From the NCBI GenBank assembly GCA_015484945.1, contig WFUO01000035.1, positions 60,096 to 124,095 of the forward strand: 64,000 nt of DNA. Direction: 5' to 3'. The position numbers and the translations under genes are program-made. Below, in pieces: positions 206 through 45,397 of this stretch. The notes beneath the pieces are model-generated. The model worked only from the letters and a program-made list of their open reading frames with translations, was not told the origin of the DNA and did not search any database. The DNA comes from Gammaproteobacteria bacterium. GTDB taxonomy: Bacteria; Pseudomonadota; Gammaproteobacteria; WFUO01. Position 1 is the first letter of the stretch, and each line of letters starts with the position of its first letter.

Positions 206-1261
206 GTGACTAAAGTTTCAGATTCCACCGGCCGGCCGTCACTCAGTTATCGTGACGCGGGGGTCGATATCGACGCCGGCAACGCCCTGGTCGAACGCAT
301 TGCGCCGATCGCCAGCAAGACCCATCGTCCAGGTGTGCTCGGCGGTCTGGGCGGGTTCGGCGCACTGTTCGAGCTGCCGCTGGATCGCTACCGGCAACCA
401 GTGCTGGTCTCAGGCACCGATGGTGTGGGCACCAAGTTGCGCCTGGCGATGATGCTTGAGCGCCACGACACCATCGGCATCGATCTCGTGGCGATGTGTG
501 TCAACGATCTGATCGTGCAAGGCGCGGAGCCCCTGTTCTTTCTCGACTACTACGCCACCGGCCATCTGAATGTGGATATGGCCGCCGACGTGGTGCGCGG
601 CATCGGCCGTGGCTGCGAGCTGGCCGGCGCCGCGCTCGTGGGCGGCGAGACGGCCGAAATGCCCGGCATGTACGAGGGTGACGACTACGACCTGGCCGGC
701 TTCTGTGTCGGTATTGTGGAAAAGGAACGCATCATCGATGGCAGCAAAGTCGCTGCCGGCGATGTGCTCATCGGCCTGGCGTCTTCCGGACCGCACTCCA
801 ACGGCTATTCACTGATCCGCAAGATCATCGAGGTCAGCCACGCCGATCTCGATGACGACTGCGGTGGTGTGCCGCTGGGCGAAGCCCTGCTGGCGCCGAC
901 GCGCATCTACGTCAAGCCCCTGCTCGCACTGATGCAGGAGATCGACATCCATGCCCTGGCGCACATCACCGGCGGCGGACTGCTGGAAAACCTGCCGCGG
1001 GTAATGCCCAATGGCACCCGCGCACGCATCGACCAGCAGGCCTGGCGGATGCCACCGGTCTTCGACTGGTTGCGCGAACAGGGCAACATAGAGGCACAGG
1101 AAATGTACCGCACATTCAACTGCGGCATCGGCATGGTCCTGTGTGTCGCCGAACGGGATGCCGACAGCGCAATCTCCTGCCTCGAAGGCATGGGTGAAAA
1201 TGCCATGATCCTGGGACGCATCGAGCAGGCAGGTGACGGTCGCGAAGTCGTCATCGAATGA
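206..1261 (+). CDS. purM: phosphoribosylformylglycinamidine cyclo-ligase (AIR synthetase)
   Basis: 351 aa; N-terminus [21 protein letters not shown] and length match PurM; GTG start preceded by GAGGA; purN follows. Confidence 0.93.
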
Positions 1262-12020: not shown

Positions 12021-12653
12021 ATGAACCGTAACAAACGCATCGAGATCTTCGAGCGCCTCAAGGCGCACATCCCCGAACCACGCACCGAACTGGAATACGA
12101 AAATACCTTCCAGCTGCTGGTGGCCGTCATGCTTTCGGCACAGGCCACCGATGTCAGTGTCAACAAGGCCATGCGCCCGGTATTCCGCAAAATCAAGACA
12201 CCACAGCAGATGCTGGATTTTGGTGAAGAACGTCTGCGCGAGGCCATCAAGACCATCGGTCTGTTCAACACCAAGGCGGCCAATGTCATCAAGACCTGCC
12301 GTATCCTGGTGGAGAAACACGACGGTCAGGTCCCTGACGACCGCAAGGCGCTCGAGGCCCTGCCAGGCGTGGGGCGCAAGACGGCCAATGTGATCCTCAA
12401 CACCGCCTTCGGCCGCCCCACCATCGCCGTCGATACCCATATCTTCCGGGTCGCCAACCGCACCGGCATCGCACCTGGCCGCAACGTTCGCGAGGTCGAG
12501 GCACGCCTGCAACGGCTGGTGCCTGATGAATACAAGCAGGACGCCCACCACTGGCTGATCCTGCACGGGCGCTATACCTGTGTCGCGCGCCGGCCACGCT
12601 GCGGGTCATGTGTCATCGAGGACCTGTGCGAATACCGTCACAAGAGCGAGTAG
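12021..12653 (+). CDS. nth: endonuclease III
   Basis: HhH-GPD (LPGVGRKTANVIL) and C-terminal 4Fe-4S Cx6Cx2Cx5C; classic position after rsxE. Confidence 0.93.
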   Translation: MNRNKRIEIFERLKAHIPEPRTELEYENTFQLLVAVMLSAQATDVSVNKAMRPVFRKIKTPQQMLDFGEERLREAIKTIGLFNTKAANVIKTCRILVEKHDGQVPDDRKALEALPGVGRKTANVILNTAFGRPTIAVDTHIFRVANRTGIAPGRNVREVEARLQRLVPDEYKQDAHHWLILHGRYTCVARRPRCGSCVIEDLCEYRHKSE

Positions 12654-12660
12654 GCCCGGC

Positions 12661-13095
12661 ATGTTCACCACTGATCGCAACCAATTACGTACCTTCTATC
12701 GCGAGGCCTGGCAAAAACACCGTGAATCCCGGCCCATGGAGCCGCTGGAAAGCCAGATCGTCGATGTCATTCTCATGCATCCCGAATACCATGATCTGCT
12801 CGAAGGCCCGCAAGACAACCTCTCACGCGACTACCACCCCGAAGACGGCCGGGAAAACCCCTTCCTGCACATGGGCCTGCACCTGGCTCTGCGCGAACAA
12901 CTGGCTACAGGACGCCCTGCACTGTGCCGCAAGATCTTTGACCAGCTGCTCGGCATCAATGGCGATGCCCACCGCACCGAACACGCGATGATGGAGTGTC
13001 TCGCCGAGGCCCTCTATCAGGCACAGCGCCAGGGCGGCATGCCTGATGAAAGGGCCTACACGACCTGTTTGCGGCACCTGCTGATCAAAAAATAG
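12661..13095 (+). CDS. hypothetical protein (DUF1841-like)
   Basis: ATG at 12661 gives 144 aa (track ORF starts earlier and overlaps nth); family assignment from memory only. Confidence 0.45.
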   Translation: MFTTDRNQLRTFYREAWQKHRESRPMEPLESQIVDVILMHPEYHDLLEGPQDNLSRDYHPEDGRENPFLHMGLHLALREQLATGRPALCRKIFDQLLGINGDAHRTEHAMMECLAEALYQAQRQGGMPDERAYTTCLRHLLIKK

Positions 13096-13267
13096 ACAGC
13101 GTGCTTGCCAAGCGGCTGAATTTCACCCTATTCTGTGATGGATTTTGAAACTTTTACAGACCAGGCCTGTCTATTCCAGCGGTTCAGTGCATAATGATGT
13201 CAGCCGGCATCCTGCCGCACACAACCAGACAACATTGATTTTGACCATTCAGATGGAGAGAAAACCC

Positions 13268-13678
13268 ATGTCCAGGAAACCAGTCAAGAAAACCCTCGCG
13301 GCCGCCATGGGCGCAGCGTTTGCCACCAGTCTCGCCACCAACCCGGTTCAGGCTGCGGAGAACCCGTTTGCGATGACCGAATTGTCCAGTGGCTACAAGC
13401 TCGCCGCCATGGAGGGCAAATGTGGTGAAGGCAAGTGCGGCGAAGGAAAATGCGGCGGCAAGATGAAGCCCAAGCCAAAGCCCAAGATGGAAGGTAAGTG
13501 CGGCGAAGGAAAATGCGGCGGCAAGATGATGGAAGGCAACAAGATGAAGCCCAAGCCAAAGCCCAAGATGGAAGGCAAGTGCGGCGAAGGAAAATGCGGC
13601 GGCAAGATGATGGAAGGCAACAAGATGAAAGCCAAGCCCAAGTCAAAAATGGAAGGCAAGTGCGGCGGCATGATGTAA
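13268..13678 (+). CDS. secreted Cys-repeat RiPP precursor (bufferin/HvfA-like metallophore precursor, EGKCG-repeat type)
   Basis: Sec signal peptide [29 protein letters not shown]|AENPF; core carries 8 EGKCG motifs separated by KPKPKPK spacers; immediately followed by DUF692 and DUF2063 genes; alternative ATG at 13253. Confidence 0.75.
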
Positions 13679-13680
13679 GG
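13390..13680 (+). repeat. in-frame tandem repeat (81-nt unit x2 plus partial units) encoding [27 protein letters not shown]
   Basis: near-identical 81-nt units visible at 13486-13566 and 13567-13647 with shorter related units on both sides. Confidence 0.8.
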
Positions 13681-13691
13681 AGCCGGACCTC

Positions 13692-14546
13692 ATGACAACC
13701 ACCTACCCCGTTCAGGGTGCCGGTCTCGGCCTGCGGCGATCCATGCTGGAGTCGCTGGCTGATGCGCCGGAGACAGCGATCGACTTCATGGAAGTCGCGC
13801 CCGAAAACTGGATGGGCGTAGGTGGCGCCTTTGGGCGCCAGTTTCGCGCCTTCACAGAGCGTTATCCGTTCGTCACCCATGGCCTGTCGCTGTCAATCGG
13901 CAGCCCATCGCCTTTGGATATGGATTTTCTCCATCGGCTCAGGAACTTCCTGTGCGAACATGATATCCGCCTGTATTCCGAGCATCTGAGCTATTGCAGT
14001 GACGATGGTCACCTGTACGACCTGATGCCCATTCCTTTCACCGAAGAGGCCGTGCATTACGTGGCCGGGCGTATCCGTCAGGTACAGGACGTACTGGAAC
14101 AACGCATCGCCATTGAAAACGTTTCCTACTACGCGGCCCCCGGCAAGGAAATGGAAGAGATCGATTTCATCAATGCCGTACTCGAAGAGGCAGACTGCGG
14201 CTTGTTGCTCGATGTAAACAACATCTATGTCAACAGCGTCAATCATGGATACGACGCCGAGAGCTTCCTGTGTGCCCTGCCCGGCGAACGCATCGACTAT
14301 TTCCATATCGCGGGTCACTACAACGAGGATGTCGATCTGATCGTGGACACCCACGGGGCCGATGTCATCGATCCGGTCTGGGCGCTGCTCGACAAGGCCT
14401 ATGCGCATTTTGGCGTCGTGCCCACGTTGCTGGAACGGGACTTCAACATTCCGCCACTGGCTGATCTGATGATCGAGGTGGAAAGGATCCGCCACATACA
14501 GAAACTTCACGAAAACGATCATGAACAGCGTATCGCCCAAGGCTGA
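13692..14546 (+). CDS. DUF692 / MNIO (MbnB-like multinuclear non-heme iron oxidative) RiPP maturase
   Basis: 284 aa TIM-barrel-type DUF692 sequence ([11 protein letters not shown]...HLSYCS...IENVSYY...HIAGH); 14 bp after precursor stop. Confidence 0.85.
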
Positions 14547-15291
14547 AAAACCGGCCTTCATTCGCAAACAGCTTGAGTTTGCCGCGCATATCCGTCACCC
14601 CGGGATCAATCCCGCGCCACAGGACATCGAACCACGGCGCATGAATATCTATACCGAGCTGTTCTACAACAACATCGAAAATTTCGTCAGTACGGCGTTT
14701 CCGGTACTGCGCGAAATCACCGCCGACGATGACTGGCATGCCATGGTGCGTGACTTCATGTACCGGCATCGTTGTCAGACACCCTACTTTCTGGAGATTC
14801 CCGAGGAATTCCTCGACTATCTACAAAATGAACGCAAAGAGATGGACGACCCACCCTGGCTGGTCGAACTGGCCCATTATGAATGGGTGGAGCTGGCCCT
14901 GTCGGTGTTCGACGAGGATACAGACGACCAGGCATTCAATCCTGACGGTCACCTGCTGGAAAGTGTGCCACGCCTCTCACCATTGGCATGGCCACTGGCC
15001 TACCGCTATGCCGTTCACCGTATCGGGCCTGATCAGCTGCCTGAAAAAGAGGAACCGACCCAGTTCGTCGTTTACCGTGACGACAATGATGAAATCCACT
15101 TCCTCGAGATCAATCCGGTTACCTACCGGCTGCTTGAGCTGCTCAATCAAGACAATACATTGAATGGCCGTCAGCTGCTGTTACGTATCGCCGAAGAAAT
15201 CGGACATCCCGATCCAGACGCCGTCGTCGATGCCGGGCATGAGATCATGCAAGACCTGCGCGAGCGCGGCATTCTCGACATTGCCCGCTAA
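14521..15291 (+). CDS. DUF2063 family partner protein (BufC/HvfC/MbnC-like)
   Basis: 256 aa; start overlaps DUF692 gene end by 26 nt (translational coupling); N-terminal YNNIENF-type region typical of DUF2063 partners of DUF692 enzymes. Confidence 0.75.
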
Positions 15292-15532
15292 CTATCACGA
15301 TACATGCAGGCGTCAGCATTCCCCCTGCCTGCACGGGGAACTTTACTAGCCAGACCGGGTCTATTGGCTACCACCATTGACAAGACGAAAAATCAGCCGA
15401 TACGACAGGTCGTGGCGTGTCATTTTGCCACGAGATGGCATGCCAGCCCTGAAGACACCGGCAACGGCCCGTTACTCGTGATAAAAATTCGAATAGTTCA
15501 ATTGGCTGCCAGGTCACCAAGGAGAACCCGAT

Positions 15533-16243
15533 ATGTCACTGAAGCAATCGTTTGGCAAGACAGCGTGCCTGTTGAACCACCTGATGGAAAAAACCAGAGC
15601 GGCCGACTTCACAGCATCCCTGCTGTTGCGCCTCTACCTGGCTCCCATCTTTCTGATGGCGGCAATCAACAAATTCAAGCTCACCGATGACAGGCTTTTT
15701 GGTATTCCGGTACCGGAAACCGTGCTGGGCCTGTTCCCCGTGGTGGACCCGAATATCATCAACTGGTTCGGCAACAGTCAGTGGGGGCTGGGCATGCCAG
15801 CCCCGGAGCTGATGGCCTACCTTTCGGCCTATACGGAATTTTTTGGCGCCATTTTACTGTTGCTTGGGCTTGCGACCCGCTGGATCAGTATCCCGCTGAT
15901 GGTCACCATGCTCGTCGCCGCACTGACTGTACACATAAAAAATGGCTGGCTCGCGATCGCCGATGGAAAGATGTTCCTGTTTGCCAATGAACGGGTCATG
16001 GACGCGCTGGAGAGAAAGGCGCGCGCGATCAGCATCCTCAAGGAACACGGCAATTGGCAGTGGTTGACCAATAATGGCGAGTATTCCTACGTGGTTCTCA
16101 ACAATGGCATCGAGTTTGCCGCCACCTATTTCGTGATGCTGCTGGCGCTGTTCTTTCTTGGCGGCGGCAGGTATGTATCGGCCGACTACTGGATCAGGCG
16201 GCGTTTCCGGTGTGAAGTGGACAAACTCGCCAGCCAGGGCTAG
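15533..16243 (+). CDS. DoxX family membrane protein
   Basis: 236 aa, 4 predicted TM helices; DoxX is the usual fourth gene of DUF692/DUF2063 metallophore operons. Confidence 0.8.
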   Translation: MSLKQSFGKTACLLNHLMEKTRAADFTASLLLRLYLAPIFLMAAINKFKLTDDRLFGIPVPETVLGLFPVVDPNIINWFGNSQWGLGMPAPELMAYLSAYTEFFGAILLLLGLATRWISIPLMVTMLVAALTVHIKNGWLAIADGKMFLFANERVMDALERKARAISILKEHGNWQWLTNNGEYSYVVLNNGIEFAATYFVMLLALFFLGGGRYVSADYWIRRRFRCEVDKLASQG

Positions 16244-16320
16244 CAGCCCGGGCACGGCAAAACGGGTCCCGGGGTAACCTGTCGGTATCAAGCAGCGGTA
16301 TTCGATACGGCGCGCACAAT

Positions 16321-16510
16321 GGCGCGGAGCCACGGAGAAAATGTAGGTGTTCAAACAGGCCTTTCAATCAACCCCTCTGTGGCTCCGTGGCTCTGTGATC
16401 TCCGTGTTTATTCACGCCACCTGCCAGCGTCACCCCGGATTACGGCCTGCGGCCTTGCATCCGGGTTACGCTACTTTGTGTTCTCCGCGTTGACCCACGA
16501 TCTGTGATAT
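16321..16510. repeat. MITE-like intergenic repeat, CACGGAGAAAATGT type
   Basis: GAGCCACGGAGAAAATGT...CTCTGTGGCTCCGTGGCTCTGTGATCTCCGTG hairpin ends; internal GGATTACGGCCTGCGGCC and TTCTCCGCGTTGA segments shared with copies at 23088 and 29881. Confidence 0.5.
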
Positions 16511-16522
16511 TACCCATCACAT

Positions 16523-16915
16523 TCAGGACGCCATCTTGGGCGCCAGCAGTTCGATTTGATAACCATCGGGGTCCTCGACGAAGGCAATGATGGTACTACC
16601 GGCATTCATTGGCCCGGGCTCGCGGATGATCTTGCCGCCCTTTTCCCTGATCTTCTCCGCGGCCGCATAGACATCATCGACCTCGATGGCCAGGTGACCA
16701 AAACCGTCACCCAGGTCATAATGATCGGTATCCCAGTTCCAGGTCAGCTCGATCACGGTATTTTCCGATTCTTCTCCATAGCCTACGAAGGCAAGGGTAA
16801 ACCGCCCGTCTGGATAATCCTTGCGCCGTAGCAGGCGCATGCCCAGTACCTGGGTATAGAAATCGATGGAACGCTCGAGATCACCGACGCGTATCATGGT
16901 GTGCAGCAGGCGCAT
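16523..16915 (-). CDS. gloA: lactoylglutathione lyase (glyoxalase I)
   Basis: 130 aa [21 protein letters not shown]...; VOC fold with metal ligands. Confidence 0.9.
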
Positions 16916-16945
16916 ACTGTTCTCCTTGCAAGGTTCCCGCGTGCA

Positions 16946-19900
16946 TTATGCCGCGCCCTCATGCTTGCAAACAAGCGGCTGTGGCCGTCCGATCGCATAA
17001 CCCTGTACATAGTCTATGCCAATCATCCGCAGGCGCTCGAGAACGATATCATTCTCGACGAACTCGGCCACAGTACGCACCCCCATGATGTGACCCACCT
17101 GGTTGATTGCCACCACCATGGCATGATCGACTGGGTCGTCGATGATATCACGGATGAAACTGCCATCTATCTTGAGATAATCCACCTGCAGATTCTTCAG
17201 ATACGAGAAGGAACTCAGGCCGCTGCCAAAATCGTCCAGCGAAAAGCTGCATCCAGTTTCCCGCATCCTGTGAATGAACTCATTGGCACTGGTGAGGTTG
17301 GATACCGCCGCAGTCTCGGTGATCTCGAAACATATCCGCGTGGTGTCGATATCATGAGCATCGATGGATTCTATGACAAAATCACAAAACCCCTGATCTC
17401 CCAGTGACTGCCCGGACAGGTTGATGGTAATACTGAGCCTTTCACCCTGCTTCTGGTACTGCTCGACCTGCCTGAATGCATTACTGATTACCCAGCGATC
17501 TATATCAGGCATCAGATGGTAGCGTTCAGCAGCAGGAATAAAACTTGCCGGCAAAACGATATCACCGTCATCATCGAGCATGCGTAACAGGATCTCGAAA
17601 TGACTGCCATCGGCCTCGGTATTGAGCGGCCTGATCTCCTGATAGTACAGACACAGCTTGTTTTCCTTCAGGCACTGCTTGATACGCTGCACCCATTCAA
17701 GCTCGGTATGATGCCTGGCCAGTTCCGTATCGTCCGGTGAATAACAATGGATACGGTTTCGCCCCAGATCCTTGGCGACATAGCAGGCCGCGTCCGCGGC
17801 GCCGAGAATATCGCTCATAGACCCACTATGCGCATGTATTGGCACCAGACCGATGCTGACGCCGGTATCGAACTGACGATCCTCCCAACTGAAACGGTAT
17901 TCCGAGATCTCTGCGCGTATCTTTTCTGCTATCTTCATCGCGTCATCGAGCGAACAATGCTCCAACAGCAAGCCAAACTCGTCACCACCCAGACGCGCCA
18001 GGGTATCACCCTCCCTGATACTGCCTTGTAGAAGTGTTGCCAGCTGCTGAAGGAGCTGATCGCCCGCCACATGGCCACAACTATCATTGACGATCTTGAA
18101 CTGATCCAGATCCATATAACACAGGGCATGAGGCACATTGTCATTACGCGCACTCTGCAGACATTTCTCCAGTTTGCGTTCGAACTCACGCCGGTTTATC
18201 AGCCCGGTCAATGGGTCGTGATTGGCCTGAAAGCTGAGACGTTGGGCCATGTCCCACATCTCGCTGACATCATGTATGACCATGACCACGCCATCGATAT
18301 CGCCCATGTCTCCTCTGATCGGGGCTGCTGTCAGCTTGACCGCATACTCCCTGCCATCATTGCGCACAGCGATACAATTGTCGCTATAGTTGACCAGCTC
18401 GCCTGTCGTTGAGCATTGTGAAACAGGGTCCGGCATGGGCTCACGCGTTTCCGCATTCATGAAGCACAAGATCTCCTTTACCCTTCTCCCCCTGGCGGTG
18501 TTGTTGTCAATGCCGGCCAGCTGTTCCGCAACCGGATTGATATAGTGGATCCTGAGATAACGGTTTGTGGTAATGACACCATCACCGATAGACTGTAGTG
18601 TGATCAGTGCACGCTCCTTTTGCTTCCTCAGGGCTTCTTCGACGAGCTTGATACTGCTGATGTCTCGCGTGGTTCCCTCTATACCGACTATCTTTCCACT
18701 GTCGTCGTAGCAGGCCTGGGCATTGGTCGATACCCAAATGATACGTCCATCCTTGCGCCGCAGGCGTACCTGGTAGTCAACCACGCTCATGTCGTTCTCT
18801 TCCATGGCCTTGAGAAAACGCTCACGGTCTGCTTGATTGACGTAATAATCCGCCATCCTGCTGCCCAGCATCTCGTCCATTGTATAACCGAGCAATTTTT
18901 CTGCTGATCTCGAGATATGCGTTACAATCCCGTCCATATCCACCCGATAGTAAGTATCCTGCATATTGTTGAGAATACTGGCCAATTCCTTTTGCGATTT
19001 TCGTAACGAGATCTCGGTATTGATCCGTTCGATGGCTTCGTCTTCCAGTTGCTGACGCAACTGTTTTTCGTGACGAATGACACGCATCAGGTAGATGCCG
19101 AATATCAGCAACAACAGCATCAGCACACCAGCTGCGATCAATGGCAACCGGTAGCGTTGCAGCGCCTCATTCAGGGAAAAATACTCTGTTCCAGCATATG
19201 GGCCGACACGAATTTCGCGCATCAAATCATGCACCGGACGATAACTCAACGGCGTATCCCAGCCAAAGCTCATGGCCGCGCTCGCGGCAGGCGAATCGGG
19301 TGGCAAACGCAACAGTTCCACCGCAACCTGACGCGCAAGTTGGTCTGACACATGAGGCAGACGCGCAAAGGGCCACTCGGGGTACAACTGTGTACTCAAC
19401 GCAAACGGAAAGCCTTTGACCTTTCTGAGATTGATGATTTTCAGTACGCCCTGTTTGATCTTACCCTCTGCGATCATGCGTTCGAGTGAATCGGTCCGGA
19501 AGGTGCCTGCATCGACCAGGCCATCACGAACCGCATACGCAACCGCATCCTGGGGAAAGCCGCTGAAACGCAATGCCCTAAAATCCCTGAACGGATCGAT
19601 ACCATGATGCTTGAGTTCCCGCCAGGCCATCTGAAACCCGCCGAACCCATCGCGTTTGACGCCCATGAAGGTTTTGCCCTTCAGATCGGCAAGGGTACGA
19701 ATATCGTCTCGGTCGGCACGCACGAATATCACTGCGCCAAAACGGCTGTATGGCCTTCCGCGGCGACGGTTGCGCAGCGTGGCCAGCGCACTGAGACGGT
19801 AGCGTGCCTCCAGGGTGACGAAATTGCCGGTATTGGTGAGCAGGAAATCGATGTGGCGGTTGGCTACGGCCGGTCCGGTTTCTGCGAGATCAAGGGGTAC

Positions 19901-22020: not shown

Positions 22021-22085
22021 TGCCGGCGCCACATGTATTCCCCTCCGTGGCTCTGTGTCTCCGTGACCTCCGTGCAGAACTCGGC
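22021..22085. repeat. solo end fragment of the CTCCGTG repeat family
   Basis: CCTGCCGGCGCCACATGTATTCCCCTCCGTGGCTCTGTGTCTCCGTGACCTCCGTG resembles the right end of the 29881 copy (CCTGCCGGCACACCCACAAGGATTTTCTCCGTGGCTCCGTG). Confidence 0.35.
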
Positions 22086-23367: not shown

Positions 23368-26300
23368 CTACCGCTTGCTGCGGCGCAGGCGCGACAACAA
23401 ACGGCGCGCCATTTCGCCGAACATCTCGGTCTGGGTCGGATGCGGATGGATCGCGTGCGCAACCTGTTCCAGGGTCATCTCGCCCGCCACCATCATCACG
23501 CCCTCACCAATCAGGGTATCGGCATGGTCTGCCAGATAGTGCACGCCGACGATGCGATGGGTCTTCTTGTCGGCGACAATCTTGATCATGCCGTGGGTCT
23601 CGTTGGTGATCATGGCCTTTGCGTCGATGCTCATCGGCATCTTGACCTCAACCGCGTCTATACCCCTGGCCCTGGCCTGTTCGACAGACAGGCCGACGAA
23701 GGCAGCCTCGGGCCGGGTGAAGATCACACCGCTGTCCTTGTCCTGGTCATAGGTCATGTCTTCACCGAGAATGGTTGCGGCGGCCACCCTGCCCTGCTGT
23801 CCGGCGGTATGCGCCAGCATCAGGCCCCCGATGACATCACCGACGGCGAAGATGTGCGGCACGCTGGTGCGGCAACGCGTATCGGCCTTGATCACACCAT
23901 TGTCGATGGCCACGCCCGCCTTGTCGAGCTGCAACGGCTCGAGCACCGGACGCTTGCCGGTAGCCATGAGCAGGTAGTCGCAGGTGAAACTGCGCGCCTT
24001 GCCGTCGGCATCCTCGTACGCGACCTTGACGGCCCCCGGCTCACCCTTGACGGACTTGATCTTGACCGAGGTCTTGATGTCCAGGCGTGGATCATCGTTG
24101 AGAACCGCCGTGAGATGTCTGGCGATCTCGGGTTCCACCTCGGCCAGAATACGATCACGCCCTTCCAGCAGGGTGACCTTGCTGCCGAAGTCCTGGAAGA
24201 TCTGCGCCATCTCCATGCCAATCGCGCCGCCGCCAACGACCCCCAGACGTCTTGGTGGCGCATCGAGCTGCCAGACGGTATCCGAAGTCAGCACGCTGCC
24301 ATTGTCGAGCCCCTCCGCGGCACCCGGAATCGGCGGCACGTACGGCGGCGCGCCAGTGGCGATGACCGCGCAACCGAAACGGATCTGCCGGCCCTCGGGT
24401 TTGCCGCCCGGCTGCTGGCGGCGGTGCGGGTCCTTGCTGTTGCCGCTGGTATCGATGAACAGCGTGTGTTGATCGACGAAGGATGCAAACCCCTGGATGA
24501 CCTCGATCCTGACGCCCTTGTCTGTCTTGAGCGCCATCTCGCCGCGTGTTTCTAGCACATGCCGGCGGGTCTTTTCGAGCTTGTCCCAATCCAGTTTCGC
24601 GCGCGTGGTGCCGGTAACACCCAGGTGCTCGTCATGGGCGCGGTCCCGGATCCGGTCGGCCGCCGCGCGCCAGGCCTTGGACGGGATGCAGCCACGCCAC
24701 AGGCATTCCCCCCCGGGAAACGGCGCGTCGTTGATCATGGCCACCTTGACGCCATGTTCGGCCAGATCCCGGGCGCAGTCCTCGCCACCAGGTCCGCCGC
24801 CGATGACGACCACGTCATAGTCCCAGTCGCCTTCGGGAATCGCCGGGCCGGTCGGGCCCATCCAGCTTTCGGGCTGCTCGATCAGACCCTTCAGGGTATT
24901 CAGATACATGGCCACTTCGGCCCCGTTGACGACCCGGTGATCGGCGGTAATCGTCATTGGCATGCCCTGTTCACCGGCCGTTGCCAGCGCCAGGATGGCG
25001 GCGATGCCGGGCGTGACGATAGCATCGAACTGACTCACGCCCAGCATGCCCATGTTCGAAATCATGAACGTCGGGTTGGCGTACTCCTCGGGCTTGAGGC
25101 GACGGCTGCGCGCACGCTCAACCAGGTCTTTCCAGTCGGCGCCCAGTTCCTCGAGACTGCGGCGATCGCAGGCGCGCAACACAGGCACCACCAGACCGCC
25201 GCCTTCTGCAGCCACCGCCATGCCGATATCGACCTGGCTGCGCTCGACCAGCCGGTCGGTGGGCTGATAGCACCAGTTCATGCTCGGATGTTTCTCCATC
25301 GCCAGCGCACAGGCCTTGGCAATCGCCACGGTAACCGATGTCCCCTTGGCTTTGGCTGCCTTGATCAGTGCCGCCGGACTGGCGTGCACGGTGACATGGA
25401 AGGTCGGTATCGTGATCGATGCCGACATCGAGTGGCTGACGGCCTTCTCCATCGCGTTCATCGGCCTGCCGTCGCCGGCCACCTCGGGTTCGGCGAACAC
25501 CGTGGTGGCGGCGGCGCTGCCGACGGGCTGGGCATTGAGCACGTCGGCCGCGGTAATCACACTGCCCGGGCCGGTACCCTGCACCTGGTTCAGATCCACC
25601 TGTTGCTGTCCGGCCAGCTTGCGCGCATACGGCGTGGCATACCGGGTGGCGGGACGGGGCGCCGGGGCAGCGGCGGTGCGGGACGGCACGCGTGCCACGG
25701 AATCGTCGCTTGCCGGCGTGGCCGCGGATGGCGCAGGTGTCTGCGCGCTGTCGGCGGACGGTGCCGCGGCTTCGACCCGCTGCTTCTCGTCCACGACCTG
25801 ATCAGCGGACTCAACCAGCCAGGCCATGACACCACCCACGGGCACCACGCTGTCAACCTCGACCATCGGACCGGACAGATAACCTTCGCGGAACACCTCG
25901 ACATCCATGATGGCCTTGTCGGTCTCGACCTGGGCGACGATGTCGCCCCGGCTGATCCTGTCGCCGGGGGCCTTCTCCCAGCTAACGACGATGCCCTCGG
26001 TCATGGTGTCGGAGAGCTGCGGCATCTTGATCGCGTGCACGGCGCCCTCCGGCTCGGCCAGGTCATTGCCTCCACCAGCCGCAGCGGGAGCCGGATCAGG
26101 TTCCGGTGCGGTTTCCGCCGCCGGATCCTCGTCCACCGGCGTTGCCGGCGCGGCGGCAGGCGCTCCGTCGTGATGCACCTCGTCGGCACTGGCGACGATA
26201 TAGGCGATCGGCTCTCCAACCGGTACGGTGCTATCCACCGGCGCCAGCGGCCCCGACAGATAGCCCTCACGGAATACCTCGACATCCATGATGGCCTTGT

Positions 26301-26430
26301 CGGTCTCGACCGTGGCGACGATGTCGCCGCGCTCGAGCCTGTCGCCGACATTCTTCTCCCAGCTCACGATGACACCTTCGGTCATGGTGTCGGAGAGCTG
26401 GGGCATTTTGATGACATAAGGATCTGCCAT
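23368..26430 (-). CDS. fused dihydrolipoamide acyltransferase (E2: 2 lipoyl domains, PSBD, catalytic) and dihydrolipoyl dehydrogenase (E3)
   Basis: 1020 aa; two lipoyl motifs (ETDKAIMDVEV x2), E3-binding segment, E2 catalytic DHRVVNGAE, then E3 FAD motif DYDVVVIGGGPGG, redox CLWRGCIPSK, NAD motif, C-terminal HAHPTQTE. Confidence 0.85.
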   Translation of the reverse strand: MADPYVIKMPQLSDTMTEGVIVSWEKNVGDRLERGDIVATVETDKAIMDVEVFREGYLSGPLAPVDSTVPVGEPIAYIVASADEVHHDGAPAAAPATPVDEDPAAETAPEPDPAPAAAGGGNDLAEPEGAVHAIKMPQLSDTMTEGIVVSWEKAPGDRISRGDIVAQVETDKAIMDVEVFREGYLSGPMVEVDSVVPVGGVMAWLVESADQVVDEKQRVEAAAPSADSAQTPAPSAATPASDDSVARVPSRTAAAPAPRPATRYATPYARKLAGQQQVDLNQVQGTGPGSVITAADVLNAQPVGSAAATTVFAEPEVAGDGRPMNAMEKAVSHSMSASITIPTFHVTVHASPAALIKAAKAKGTSVTVAIAKACALAMEKHPSMNWCYQPTDRLVERSQVDIGMAVAAEGGGLVVPVLRACDRRSLEELGADWKDLVERARSRRLKPEEYANPTFMISNMGMLGVSQFDAIVTPGIAAILALATAGEQGMPMTITADHRVVNGAEVAMYLNTLKGLIEQPESWMGPTGPAIPEGDWDYDVVVIGGGPGGEDCARDLAEHGVKVAMINDAPFPGGECLWRGCIPSKAWRAAADRIRDRAHDEHLGVTGTTRAKLDWDKLEKTRRHVLETRGEMALKTDKGVRIEVIQGFASFVDQHTLFIDTSGNSKDPHRRQQPGGKPEGRQIRFGCAVIATGAPPYVPPIPGAAEGLDNGSVLTSDTVWQLDAPPRRLGVVGGGAIGMEMAQIFQDFGSKVTLLEGRDRILAEVEPEIARHLTAVLNDDPRLDIKTSVKIKSVKGEPGAVKVAYEDADGKARSFTCDYLLMATGKRPVLEPLQLDKAGVAIDNGVIKADTRCRTSVPHIFAVGDVIGGLMLAHTAGQQGRVAAATILGEDMTYDQDKDSGVIFTRPEAAFVGLSVEQARARGIDAVEVKMPMSIDAKAMITNETHGMIKIVADKKTHRIVGVHYLADHADTLIGEGVMMVAGEMTLEQVAHAIHPHPTQTEMFGEMARRLLSRLRRSKR

Positions 26431-29880: not shown

Positions 29881-30241
29881 ACACGGAGCACACAGAGGAG
29901 GCACAGAGACCACAAAGGTGGACAATGGTTTATCCGCGGGGACATGGATAACATGGGAAAATCTGGCTGCACGACCCTTCATGCAGATGACCTGGACACC
30001 CAGCACGCCCGTAGTTCAACCATCGCTGTCTTTGCGTCCTCCGCGCCTTGGCGTTCTTTGCGTTACCTCACGCCCTCAGCAGCAGTGGCGCGGCCCGGAT
30101 GCAGGCCACAGGCCGGAATCCGTGGATCTTCGTACGGATGGCATGCGGTCAACACGGTGATACAAAGGCGAGGATTGAAAGGCCTGCCGGCACACCCACA
30201 AGGATTTTCTCCGTGGCTCCGTGCCTCTGTGTGCTCCGTGT
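29881..30241. repeat. MITE-like element with perfect 18-bp terminal inverted repeats
   Basis: 5' ACACGGAGCACACAGAGG at 29881 and its exact reverse complement CCTCTGTGTGCTCCGTGT at 30224-30241; internal TTTGCGTCCTCCGCGCCTTGGCGTTCTTTGCGTT segment shared with 53825 and 23088 copies. Confidence 0.6.
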
Positions 30242-44344: not shown

Positions 44345-45397
44345 TCAGGTACGAATCACGACCGGTGTGGCGCCATGCGATTCACGCACCTCGCCGATGA
44401 CAGCGATGTCACCGAACCCCAACCCGGTCAGTTCCTCCATGATGCCATCCACGGCCTCTGGCGCCACCGATACCAACAAGCCGCCGCTCGTCTGTGGATC
44501 GGTGTAGATCAATTCGAAATCCGGGTCAAGATCACCCTCGAAGGCAATCGAATCACCATAGGCGCCAAGATTGCGGTAGGCGCCACCGGGAACGACCCCT
44601 TCCCGGGCCAGGTCATGGACACCTTCCATGACCGGGATCCTTTTCGTATCGACCTGGATCTCGACATCCGCGCCCTCGGCCATTTCCAGCAGATGACCGG
44701 CGAGGCCAAAGCCCGTGATATCCGTAATCGCATGCACGGCCTTTTGCTGCCCCAGCCACGCACCCGGTTTGTTCAGGCGCGACATGACATCGACCACCCG
44801 CGCACGGCCCGCATCGTCCAGCATCTTGATCTTGATCGCCGTGGTCATGATGCCGATCCCCAACGGCTTGGTCAGCAACAGCACATCGCCCGGCCTTGCG
44901 CCAGCATTGGTCTTGATGTTTTCCGGGTGCACGACACCGACGGCGCAAAGACCGAACAACGGCTCCTCGTTGTCGATACTGTGCCCGCCGGCAAGCGGAA
45001 TACCCGCTTCCTTGCACACATCGACGCCACCGCGCATGATCTCCTGCATTGCGTCCAGTGGCAACTTGTTGACCGGGAAGCCGACAATCGAGGTTGCCAG
45101 GATCGGCTGCCCACCCATCGCATAGACATCACTCAGCGCATTGGCTGAAGCGATACGACCAAACGCATAGGGATCATCGACGATGGGCATGAAGAAGTCG
45201 TTGGTCACGATCACGCATTGCGAGTCATTGATCCGGTACACAGCCGCATCATCACTCGACTCTATCCCGACCAGCAGGTCGTTATCACCTGACAGTTTGG
45301 GCACGTTGGAAAGAATCTCATGCAACGCAGCGGGGTCGATCTTGCAGCCACAGCCACCGCCGTGAGAGTGCTGGGTCAGACATACCTGTTCCATCAT
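44345..45397 (-). CDS. selD: selenide, water dikinase (Cys-type)
   Basis: LTQHSHGGGCGCKI N-terminal motif with Cys (not Sec) at the active position; AIR-synthase-related fold. Confidence 0.92.
   Translation of the reverse strand: MMEQVCLTQHSHGGGCGCKIDPAALHEILSNVPKLSGDNDLLVGIESSDDAAVYRINDSQCVIVTNDFFMPIVDDPYAFGRIASANALSDVYAMGGQPILATSIVGFPVNKLPLDAMQEIMRGGVDVCKEAGIPLAGGHSIDNEEPLFGLCAVGVVHPENIKTNAGARPGDVLLLTKPLGIGIMTTAIKIKMLDDAGRARVVDVMSRLNKPGAWLGQQKAVHAITDITGFGLAGHLLEMAEGADVEIQVDTKRIPVMEGVHDLAREGVVPGGAYRNLGAYGDSIAFEGDLDPDFELIYTDPQTSGGLLVSVAPEAVDGIMEELTGLGFGDIAVIGEVRESHGATPVVIRT

Follow-up and report, generated by a model that had tools for sequence, protein, structure and literature searches.

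The stretch of gammaproteobacterial DNA analysed here over its full 64 kb (the window, to which all coordinates refer; contig WFUO01000035.1 of assembly GCA_015484945.1) contains a cluster of four genes that in all likelihood directs the synthesis of a metallophore of the HvfA family, a peptide made on the ribosome and modified after translation (RiPP). It comprises the genes for a precursor with EGKCG repeats (hvfA), a DUF692 or MNIO-family peptide maturase (hvfB), a DUF2063 partner protein (hvfC) and a DoxX-family membrane protein (hvfX) (Table 1). A first-pass annotation, made from the sequence alone, had described four co-directional genes at this place, and all four are borne out as open reading frames (ORFs) on the + strand between 13268 and 16243. 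The 26-nt overlap that it gave for the MNIO and DUF2063 genes is exact, whereas the gap after the precursor gene measures 13 nt rather than 14 nt and the gap before the DoxX gene 241 nt rather than 240 nt. It had also begun the precursor at 13253, as a protein of 137 aa, but the in-frame ATG at this upstream position lacks a Shine-Dalgarno sequence. Initiation is likely at the ATG at 13268, which is preceded by a GGAG 9 nt upstream, is picked by the gene callers in two other assemblies and coincides with the beginning of the homologues (‘MSxK...’); translation from there gives 136 aa. The rnfB/C/D/G/E-nth array had rightly been recognized upstream, but the cluster does not lie directly downstream of nth: a DUF1841 gene intervenes, probably as a part of the rnf-nth operon since it starts only 7 nt after nth. 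Three other assemblies, namely a metagenome scaffold from ENA, a Logan run and the metagenome-assembled genome (MAG) GCA_027076455.1 of NCBI, contain the locus at 99.5–99.8% identity; as the precursor is identical in all three, its repeats are not an assembly artefact.

Table 1. Features of the hvf locus and its upstream flank, with the evidence for each.
Feature	Coordinates	Strand	Basis
nth (endonuclease III)	12021..12653	+	TIGR01083, 276.9 bits vs cut-off 211.7; last gene of rnfABCDGE-nth array
DUF1841 gene	12661..13095	+	PF08897, E = 1.2e-50; 7 nt after nth; called as 144 aa in related locus L081
Predicted ECF promoter P1 for hvfA	13147..13174	+	Bipartite motif; function inferred
hvfA-family precursor, 136 aa	13268..13678	+	NF050137, 45.1 vs 19.5 bits
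81-nt (27-aa) tandem repeat within precursor	13459..13667	+	Tandem Repeats Finder
hvfB, MNIO (DUF692) peptide maturase, 284 aa	13692..14546	+	PF05114, NF003818
hvfC, DUF2063 + RRE-type partner, 256 aa	14521..15291	+	PF09836, PF22106, NF050145
Predicted ECF promoter P2, hvfC-hvfX gap	15337..15365	+	Second of two matches in the window
15-bp hairpin, predicted hvfX 5′ untranslated region	15413..15445	+	RNA fold of 15292-15532
hvfX, DoxX-family membrane protein, 236 aa	15533..16243	+	PF07681, NF050144

The precursor begins with a predicted Sec-type signal peptide (residues 1–29), in which a K/R-rich n-region is followed by hydrophobic residues 10–24 and by a predicted cleavage site between VQA, at positions -3 to -1, and AE. 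These heuristic checks support the Sec signal originally proposed, and the N-terminus has neither a twin-arginine motif nor a lipobox Cys. Beyond it lie a conserved NPFxMxELSSGY motif (residues 32–43) and a core (residues 49–136) with the EGKCG motifs, which number exactly eight, as first counted. The 27-residue repeating unit noted in the first-pass annotation proves genuine at the DNA level: a tandem repeat with a period of 81 nt (score 369, 2.6 copies, 94% matches) is present, made up of two copies and a degenerate partial one. Each 27-aa unit combines two EGKCG motifs with a 17-aa spacer of K, P and M; two of the KPKPKPK spacers that had been described are present, plus one degenerate KAKPKSK spacer. 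The description of the precursor as unusually regular did not survive comparison, as several related loci (L013, L022, L032 and L061) have precursors with five or six perfect repeats; it is unusual only in the length and composition of its spacers. Lys makes up 28% of the core, Met 15% and Pro 8%. In the 120 best homologues Met does not exceed 12% nor Pro 4%, and neither KPKPK nor a unit of 27 aa with KPKPKPK/Met-rich spacers is found in any of them. When the JGI metagenomes were scanned twice with degenerate DNA patterns for the KPKPK(M)EGKCG spacer, one scan gave no hits and the other a single hit by chance (L086), not itself a precursor.

At least 6802 homologues were recovered for the precursor, which sets aside the concern that it might be a degraded ORF lacking conservation. 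In most sources they are labelled ‘uncharacterized low-complexity protein’ (COG3767), and some are named ‘HvfA family ... RiPP metallophore’ by NCBI. The precursor has no Pfam match; it is recognized over three stretches by NF050137 (KCGExKCG_twice; ‘HvfA family oxazolone/thioamide-modified RiPP metallophore’). In an alignment of 41 sequences, N32, P33, F34, G42 and Y43 are invariant, as are the EGKCG columns, and the NPF..GY motif occurs in 119 of the 120 top homologues. The AlphaFold2 (AF2) model computed from the same alignment has a mean predicted local distance difference test score (pLDDT) of 48, no strands and a single helix at residues 8–23; as a model of such low confidence shows only this signal-peptide helix, the published beta-helix is not reproduced in it for the precursor of the window. 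We also observed that many relatives carry a pair of EF-hand Ca-binding motifs between blocks of EGKCG motifs, behind a normal signal peptide (e.g., loci L010, L016, L028, L031, L033 and L034; proteins P0007, P0011, P0012, P0022 and others), unlike the published EF-hand type, in which a transmembrane helix is followed by a short EGKCG domain devoid of repeats, with the EF-hands on its C-terminal side. The exact 136-aa precursor (13268–13675) is reported as absent from a collection of 15 billion proteins, yet is called identically on loci L081 and L083; a short product of low complexity, it seems to have been missed by the collection.

The remaining three proteins belong to the families first assigned to them. 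HvfB matches the DUF692/MNIO domain (PF05114, 361 bits) and exceeds the cut-off of the NCBIfam HvfB model (NF003818, 453.6 vs 360 bits); HvfC matches PF09836 (90.8 bits), PF22106 (111.7 bits) and the HvfC model NF050145 (320.3 vs 142 bits); and HvfX matches PF07681 (63 bits) and the HvfX model NF050144 (206 vs 80 bits). As all four proteins, including the HvfA-family precursor, pass the curated NCBI cut-offs, the earlier interpretation of the gene set as having the architecture of these metallophore systems is right. By contrast, the models for the bufferin enzyme BufB (NF050167, 275.7 vs 310 bits) and for the methanobactin enzyme MbnB (TIGR04159, 52.1 vs 325 bits) remain below and far below their cut-offs, respectively, and hence the enzyme is of the HvfB type rather than the bufferin or methanobactin type. 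The closest solved structures are PDB 3BWW for HvfB (8e-76) and PDB 3DEE (NGO1945) for HvfC (3e-13). The ligands of the three iron sites of MbnB are H54, H90, E133, D163, N166, H192, D208, H210 and E239 (PMC9060507), and all nine have equivalents in HvfB, namely H63, H98, E142, D174, N177, H205, D219, H221 and E248, the equivalent of MbnB His54 having been located through its motif and the alignment with 3BWW, not through that with 7TCR. Among them is the N/D/H triad, whose mutation inactivates the H. influenzae HvfB.

We collected relatives in a scan that used one genome per species, and retained 80 related loci. A k-mer enrichment analysis of the 220 nt upstream of hvfA recovered GAAACTTT in 23 of 57 loci, against a maximum of 6 in shuffled sequences. 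These sites align as GAAACTTT-N14-GTC(A/G)TA, 87–175 nt upstream of the hvfA start codon in the relatives, with an invariant spacing of 15 nt between AACTT and GTC; of 56 relatives, 26 have this arrangement before hvfA, and so does the window. Across the 1.2 Mb of the 80 loci, both strands included, 31 of the 38 matches to RAACTT-N15-GTC fall just upstream of hvfA and on its strand, while shuffled versions yield 8–13 matches in total. The window has exactly two such matches (0.49 expected by chance), both on the + strand and both ending in GTCTAT: one upstream of hvfA (13148–13171) and one inside the hvfC-hvfX gap (15338–15361). The first (P1) has a -35 element GAAACTT (13147–13153), a 16-nt spacer to TC and a -10 element GTCTAT (13169–13174), which would place the transcription start near 13180 and give a 5′ untranslated region (5′UTR) of about 87 nt, whose predicted fold is not unusual (z = -0.56). 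The second (P2) has a -35 element GGAACTT (15337–15343) and a -10 element GTCTAT(T) from 15359. Both have the form that defines promoters of the RpoE/AlgU type, i.e., a -35 GGAACTT or GAACTT and a -10 (G)TCnnA about 16 nt apart, upstream of a gene on its own strand; promoters of the same form are known for Shewanella RpoE (e.g., rpoH, GAACTT-N15-GTCTAT; PMC4336711).

We accordingly predict two promoters for an extracytoplasmic function (ECF) sigma factor from their sequence, with strong comparative support, the factor reading them being probably of the RpoE/AlgU type by analogy. The two sites together suggest envelope-stress control of the cluster and a separate promoter for hvfX. Precedents for ECF control of these clusters exist in Neisseria (sigma-E) and Caulobacter (sigma-F), and in H. 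influenzae the cluster requires the ECF factor RpoE2 and is induced by hypochlorous acid (HOCl); a link of MNIO clusters to RpoE/AlgU-type promoters was not found stated in the searchable literature. A generic scan for sigma-70 promoters and terminators gave no result exceeding chance, and on the + strand no terminator within the operon or behind it. The heptamer GTCTATT shared by the two intergenic regions had been considered a chance occurrence; this view was dropped, the heptamer being the -10 element of both ECF-type promoters. A palindromic operator around the -10 element was also considered and rejected: inspection by eye shows no conservation of it, and beyond the two promoter boxes no column is conserved or stands out in information content.

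The P2 site lies in a region that is itself peculiar. HvfX has four segments resembling transmembrane helices by hydropathy, and its ATG is preceded by AGGAG 7 nt upstream. Measured from the stop codon of hvfC to the conserved portion of HvfX, the spacing amounts to 319 nt, more than in any other of the 46 loci compared (median 110 nt). The next-longest gap, 310 nt, belongs to locus L018, the sole relative with the promoter motif between hvfC and hvfX, and we attribute the odd length of the gap to the second promoter site within it. The gap (15292–15532) folds better than shuffled sequences (z = -2.36, 4 of 200 shuffles being as good), and includes a predicted 15-bp hairpin with four G-U pairs and no U-run after it. 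A scan of 12500–17000 against Rfam gave no match at E ≤ 1. The 241-nt gap has no second copy in the window and no DNA or translated similarity in the 80 related loci; it contains a single short inverted repeat and no credible ORF. Separately, a small stem-loop, CAGGTCG-TGGCAAA-CGACC, is kept in the hvfA 5′UTR of one subclade of relatives (L010, L014, L029 and L031), about 25–45 nt downstream of the hvfA -10 box, with variants in L026 and L030, the latter retaining the stem with an altered loop. The 12-mer ACAGGTCGTGGC of this relatives' stem-loop also occurs in the hvfX leader of the window (~15404–15415), where it pairs differently.

The scan of one genome per species returned more than 589 relatives of HvfB. 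After the best match, discussed below, come proteins of Thiohalophilus, Thiohalobacter and other sulfur-oxidizing or marine gammaproteobacterial MAGs. The order hvfA-hvfB-hvfC is the rule across the 80 related loci; hvfX is directly downstream of hvfC in 45 of 73 and upstream of hvfB in 7 of 73. Of the 63 loci with enough flanking sequence, 30 have nth upstream and on the same strand, as conserved context rather than as a member of the cluster, and 18 have DUF1841 in the position that it holds in the window. The linkage of nth and hvf may be functional, through redox or oxidative damage, or merely inherited. The neighbours are housekeeping genes on both sides: purM, purN, apbC, metG, rnf, nth and DUF1841 upstream, and gloA, a gene for a GGDEF-EAL protein and argG downstream. 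The window has no TonB receptors and no sigma factor genes, the rpoE of the genome lying outside it. A horizontal transfer island was considered and rejected. The GC content of the locus, 0.53–0.57 vs 0.60–0.63 for the rnf genes, is only mildly lower, and the nth-(DUF1841)-hvf arrangement recurs in related MAGs and genomes; this small difference and the conserved synteny argue for an ancestral rather than a recently acquired locus. Loci with rnfABCDGE-nth(-DUF1841) before hvf occur in MAGs labelled as several gammaproteobacterial groups. One such relative, L010 (CAVYIJ010000003.1), is labelled ‘uncultured Halobacteria archaeon’, yet has a typical gammaproteobacterial nth-hvfABCX locus with nth 76% and HvfB 72% identical to those of the window; faulty binning or labelling of this MAG is probable.

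The family membership of the four genes, the intact catalytic residues, the features of the signal peptide, the conserved synteny and the conserved promoter motif converge on a cluster of the hvfABCX type, of the class variously termed Buf_EGKCG, oxazolin or ‘captophorin’, and we hold this identification, together with the mechanism and regulation proposed below, to be highly probable. Its closest studied counterpart is the H. influenzae hvfXABC cluster (NTHI1440-1444), which has the same four families, and for HvfB, HvfC and HvfX the NCBIfam equivalog cut-offs are passed. There, HvfABC produce oxazolin, in which all six EGKCG cysteines are oxidized (-24 Da, with a chromophore at 302 nm), and HvfC binds HvfA, no function being ascribed to HvfX (PMC11252979). 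An ECF sigma factor controls that cluster, as an ECF-type promoter is predicted to do here. The differences are that doxX is the first gene in H. influenzae and the last in the window, with its own predicted promoter, and that the H. influenzae HvfA has 95 aa, three repeats of 11 aa and two disulfide cysteines in its N-terminal region, vs 136 aa, eight EGKCG motifs, 27-aa K/P/M-rich repeats and no extra Cys in the precursor studied here.

The same MNIO and PME1 architecture is seen in the fonABC (fontiphorin) cluster of Fontimonas thermophila, whose precursor has EGKCG repeats like that of the window, and in the ngo (gonophorin) cluster of N. gonorrhoeae, though repeat number and spacers differ. 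The Neisseria cluster also forms one transcription unit with sigma and anti-sigma genes of its own; no sigma gene occurs in or near the cluster studied here. Fontiphorin, oxazolin and gonophorin carry 5-thiooxazoles and bind copper, and the class has been named captophorins (bioRxiv 10.1101/2025.11.18.689057); a stochastic binding of Cu, as opposed to binding within an ordered fold, has been proposed for them (10.1101/2025.11.18.689057), with which the disordered AF2 model of the precursor agrees, and a disordered peptide would fit such published binding by EGKCG peptides. A survey of Buf_EGKCG precursors listed about 2,000 members, mostly from Pseudomonadota (Microb Genom 2025, PMC12452194), and their core of precursor, MNIO, DUF2063 and DoxX genes and their Sec signal peptides (PMC12452194) are matched in the window. 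The published type 1 has 17-residue repeats (PMC12452194), vs the 27-residue unit here, for which the low-confidence AF2 model (pLDDT 48) shows no strands. The bufferins Buf1 and Buf2 of Caulobacter (BufABC, PMC11626156) have the same pair of an MNIO and a DUF2063 protein with a RiPP recognition element (RRE), and a precursor with a Sec signal; they contain thiooxazoles and protect against copper, DoxX genes are common in their clusters and control by an ECF sigma factor is known (PMC11626156). Their precursors, however, are of the DUF2282 or 6/12-Cys kinds, unlike the precursor of the window with its lack of a Pfam match, and the BufB model is not reached. Methanobactin (MbnABC) is more distant: its MNIO also oxidizes Cys to a copper-binding heterocycle, and each of the metal ligands has its counterpart at the matching position of HvfB, but it differs in its MbnC partner, leader peptide, dedicated export and uptake genes, oxazolone/thioamide groups and role in copper acquisition. 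In the window, the partner is of the HvfC type rather than MbnC and the precursor has a signal peptide in place of the MbnA leader.

By analogy with these characterized homologues, from which the chemistry, the copper binding and the periplasmic location are drawn, HvfA would be translated with its Sec signal peptide and acted upon before export by an HvfB-HvfC complex, in which HvfC (DUF2063 and RRE) would bind the precursor and HvfB would serve as a diiron or triiron MNIO. Each of the eight EGKCG cysteines would be oxidized by four electrons with the use of O2 to a Cu(I)-binding 5-thiooxazole heterocycle (-4 Da per Cys, with an absorbance expected near 302–305 nm). For the peptide without its signal, an average mass of 11,247.5 Da is calculated in the unmodified state, which eight such modifications would lower by about 32.3 Da to about 11,215 Da. 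The modified peptide of about 107 aa would then be exported, its signal peptide cut after VQA, and would sequester copper in the periplasm, so that its probable function is periplasmic copper buffering; HvfX would be a co-conserved membrane protein, with no role assigned to it. Transcription is proposed to start from the RpoE/AlgU-type ECF-sigma promoter upstream of hvfA, with the second copy upstream of hvfX, which would couple synthesis of the peptide to envelope or oxidative stress.

Several observations weigh against this interpretation. The equivalog model for the H. influenzae HvfA (NF050188) is not reached (42.8 vs 95 bits), and hence membership of the precursor is at the level of the family only. 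Its unconfident AF2 model lends no structural support to an ordered metal site. No copper-homeostasis genes (cop, cus, cue) are present in the window. The organism is an uncultured gammaproteobacterium, for whose HvfB the best match, from a Thiogranum MAG, is 78% identical. As to regulation, the zinc-binding anti-sigma (ZAS)-type sigma-E of Neisseria, which controls a homologous cluster, has the consensus -35 GTAAGGTT and -10 CGTCTAA (PMC2893595), and this -35 element is unlike the motif found here; the sigma assignment is consequently not transferable from Neisseria. The H. influenzae RpoE2 is likewise a ZAS-type ECF factor, the consensus of the related Neisseria sigma-E differing from the motif of the window at -35. 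Finally, a weak sigma-70-like site was found at 13105–13134 by the generic scan, within chance expectation.

The alternative that fares best keeps the cluster and its chemistry while giving it a role other than mainly copper buffering: protection from oxidative, hypochlorite or envelope stress, or the binding of other soft metals. We regard it as possible, if distinctly less probable than copper buffering. Thiol-bearing heterocycles and DoxX would protect the cell, or would bind the Ag, Au, Hg and Cd abundant at hydrothermal sites, with the Met-rich spacers adding thioether ligands. Consistent with this are the induction of the H. influenzae cluster by HOCl through RpoE2, the response of a DUF692 RiPP iModulon of P. 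aeruginosa to NaOCl, the RpoE-type promoter of the present locus pointing to envelope stress, and the lack of copper genes or copper regulators nearby. The Met content of the core, above the maximum of its 120 best homologues, and the links of related clusters to gold, mercury and other metals noted in the literature point in the same direction, as does provenance, the related assemblies coming from metagenomes and the relatives being MAGs of sulfur oxidizers. Against it, all characterized members bind Cu(I), and the bufferins protect against copper. Moreover, such a role is compatible with copper buffering rather than exclusive of it: copper itself causes oxidative and envelope stress, so that induction by stress and copper binding can go together.

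A different chemistry, in which the cysteines would become oxazolone/thioamide pairs as in methanobactin, is improbable. The first-pass annotation had offered oxazolone/thioamide or thiooxazole as the product, and of these the literature on homologues upholds the thiooxazole and speaks against the oxazolone/thioamide. The latter goes back to the original assignment for HvfA (PMC11252979), and the names of the NCBIfam models still reflect it, but alkylation-assisted heteronuclear multiple-bond correlation (HMBC) spectra of fontiphorin, oxazolin and gonophorin are incompatible with it. The Cys modification has been reassigned to 5-thiooxazole, and the original authors themselves have adopted the reassignment (10.1101/2025.11.18.689057; 10.64898/2026.07.17.739211). 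The scores of the enzyme, of the HvfB type (453.6 bits) and far from MbnB (52.1 vs 325), point the same way. Still less probable is a chalkophore, i.e., a secreted metallophore for copper acquisition like methanobactin rather than a periplasmic sink. A secreted product and an MNIO chemistry shared with methanobactin would suit it, but the window has no TonB-dependent receptor, MATE exporter or MbnC-type partner, export would proceed by a Sec signal peptide and not by a leader peptide and a dedicated exporter, the product would be large (107 aa) and polycationic (pI 9.5), and related clusters are induced by metal excess rather than starvation. We give hardly any credence to an unmodified, metallothionein-like Cys-rich periplasmic protein or a decayed low-complexity ORF, with enzymes inactive or acting elsewhere: the frequent annotation as ‘uncharacterized low-complexity protein’ (COG3767) and the lack of an AF2 fold are outweighed by the intact metal-site residues of HvfB, the tight coupling of the operon (13-nt gap and 26-nt overlap), the identity of the precursor in three other assemblies, the family-wide invariance of the NPF..GY and EGKCG columns and published data by which precursors of this kind only very rarely lack accompanying MNIO and partner genes.

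Within the hvfABCX-type interpretation, a more specific proposal joins three departures, and we put it forward as a tentative and, taken as a whole, rather unlikely one: that in this lineage an EGKCG metallophore has been both rewired and remodelled in its regulon, its hvfX promoter and its spacers. Under it, the cluster would have come under the canonical RpoE/AlgU envelope-stress regulon instead of a dedicated ZAS-type or copper-responsive ECF factor; hvfX would have gained its own RpoE-type promoter and a structured 5′UTR, such that DoxX could be made independently of the peptide; and the 27-aa Lys/Pro/Met-rich spacers would confer a second function. For the last of these, the Met thioethers could serve as additional sites for Cu(I)/Ag(I), or the peptide could be anchored to the anionic envelope by its polycationic (KP)n arms.

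Elsewhere in the window, a dispersed repeat with the core CTCCGTGGCTC is present in 7 copies (with at most one mismatch) vs 1.5 expected, a number reached in none of 100 shuffles; copies lie at 16327–16337 (-), 16375–16393 (+), 22043–22053 (+) and 30209–30227 (+). Those checked at 16327–16393 are in the hvfX-gloA intergenic region, and the repeat looks like an element of the repetitive extragenic palindromic (REP) type. An ORF of 1020 aa (23368–26430, -), downstream of genes for E1 alpha and beta, encodes two lipoyl domains, an E3-binding domain, an E2 acyltransferase core and a complete E3, or dihydrolipoyl dehydrogenase (Pyr_redox_2 and Pyr_redox_dim), and appears to be an E2-E3 fusion of a 2-oxoacid dehydrogenase. 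There are also two genes of the AIR-synthase family (AIRS/AIRS_C), of which that at 206–1258 (+) adjoins purN and is presumably purM, and that at 44345–45397 (-) adjoins a TauE-family gene.

The family to which this cluster belongs is already described, with curated NCBI models, several biochemically characterized members and a reported size of anywhere between about 2,000 and upwards of 20,000 members; as such, a further cluster adds little to a family already curated, characterized and catalogued. What is previously unreported is the Lys/Pro/Met-rich spacer and the two predicted sigma-E-type stress promoters. The predicted RpoE/AlgU-type promoter of hvfA, present in many sulfur-oxidizing and marine Gammaproteobacteria, offers a testable link of these metallophores to the envelope-stress response, and the separate promoter predicted for hvfX could help to dissect the role of the DoxX component. 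The Lys/Pro/Met-rich spacer, in turn, is a natural variant with which to ask whether the sequence between the EGKCG motifs matters for metal binding.

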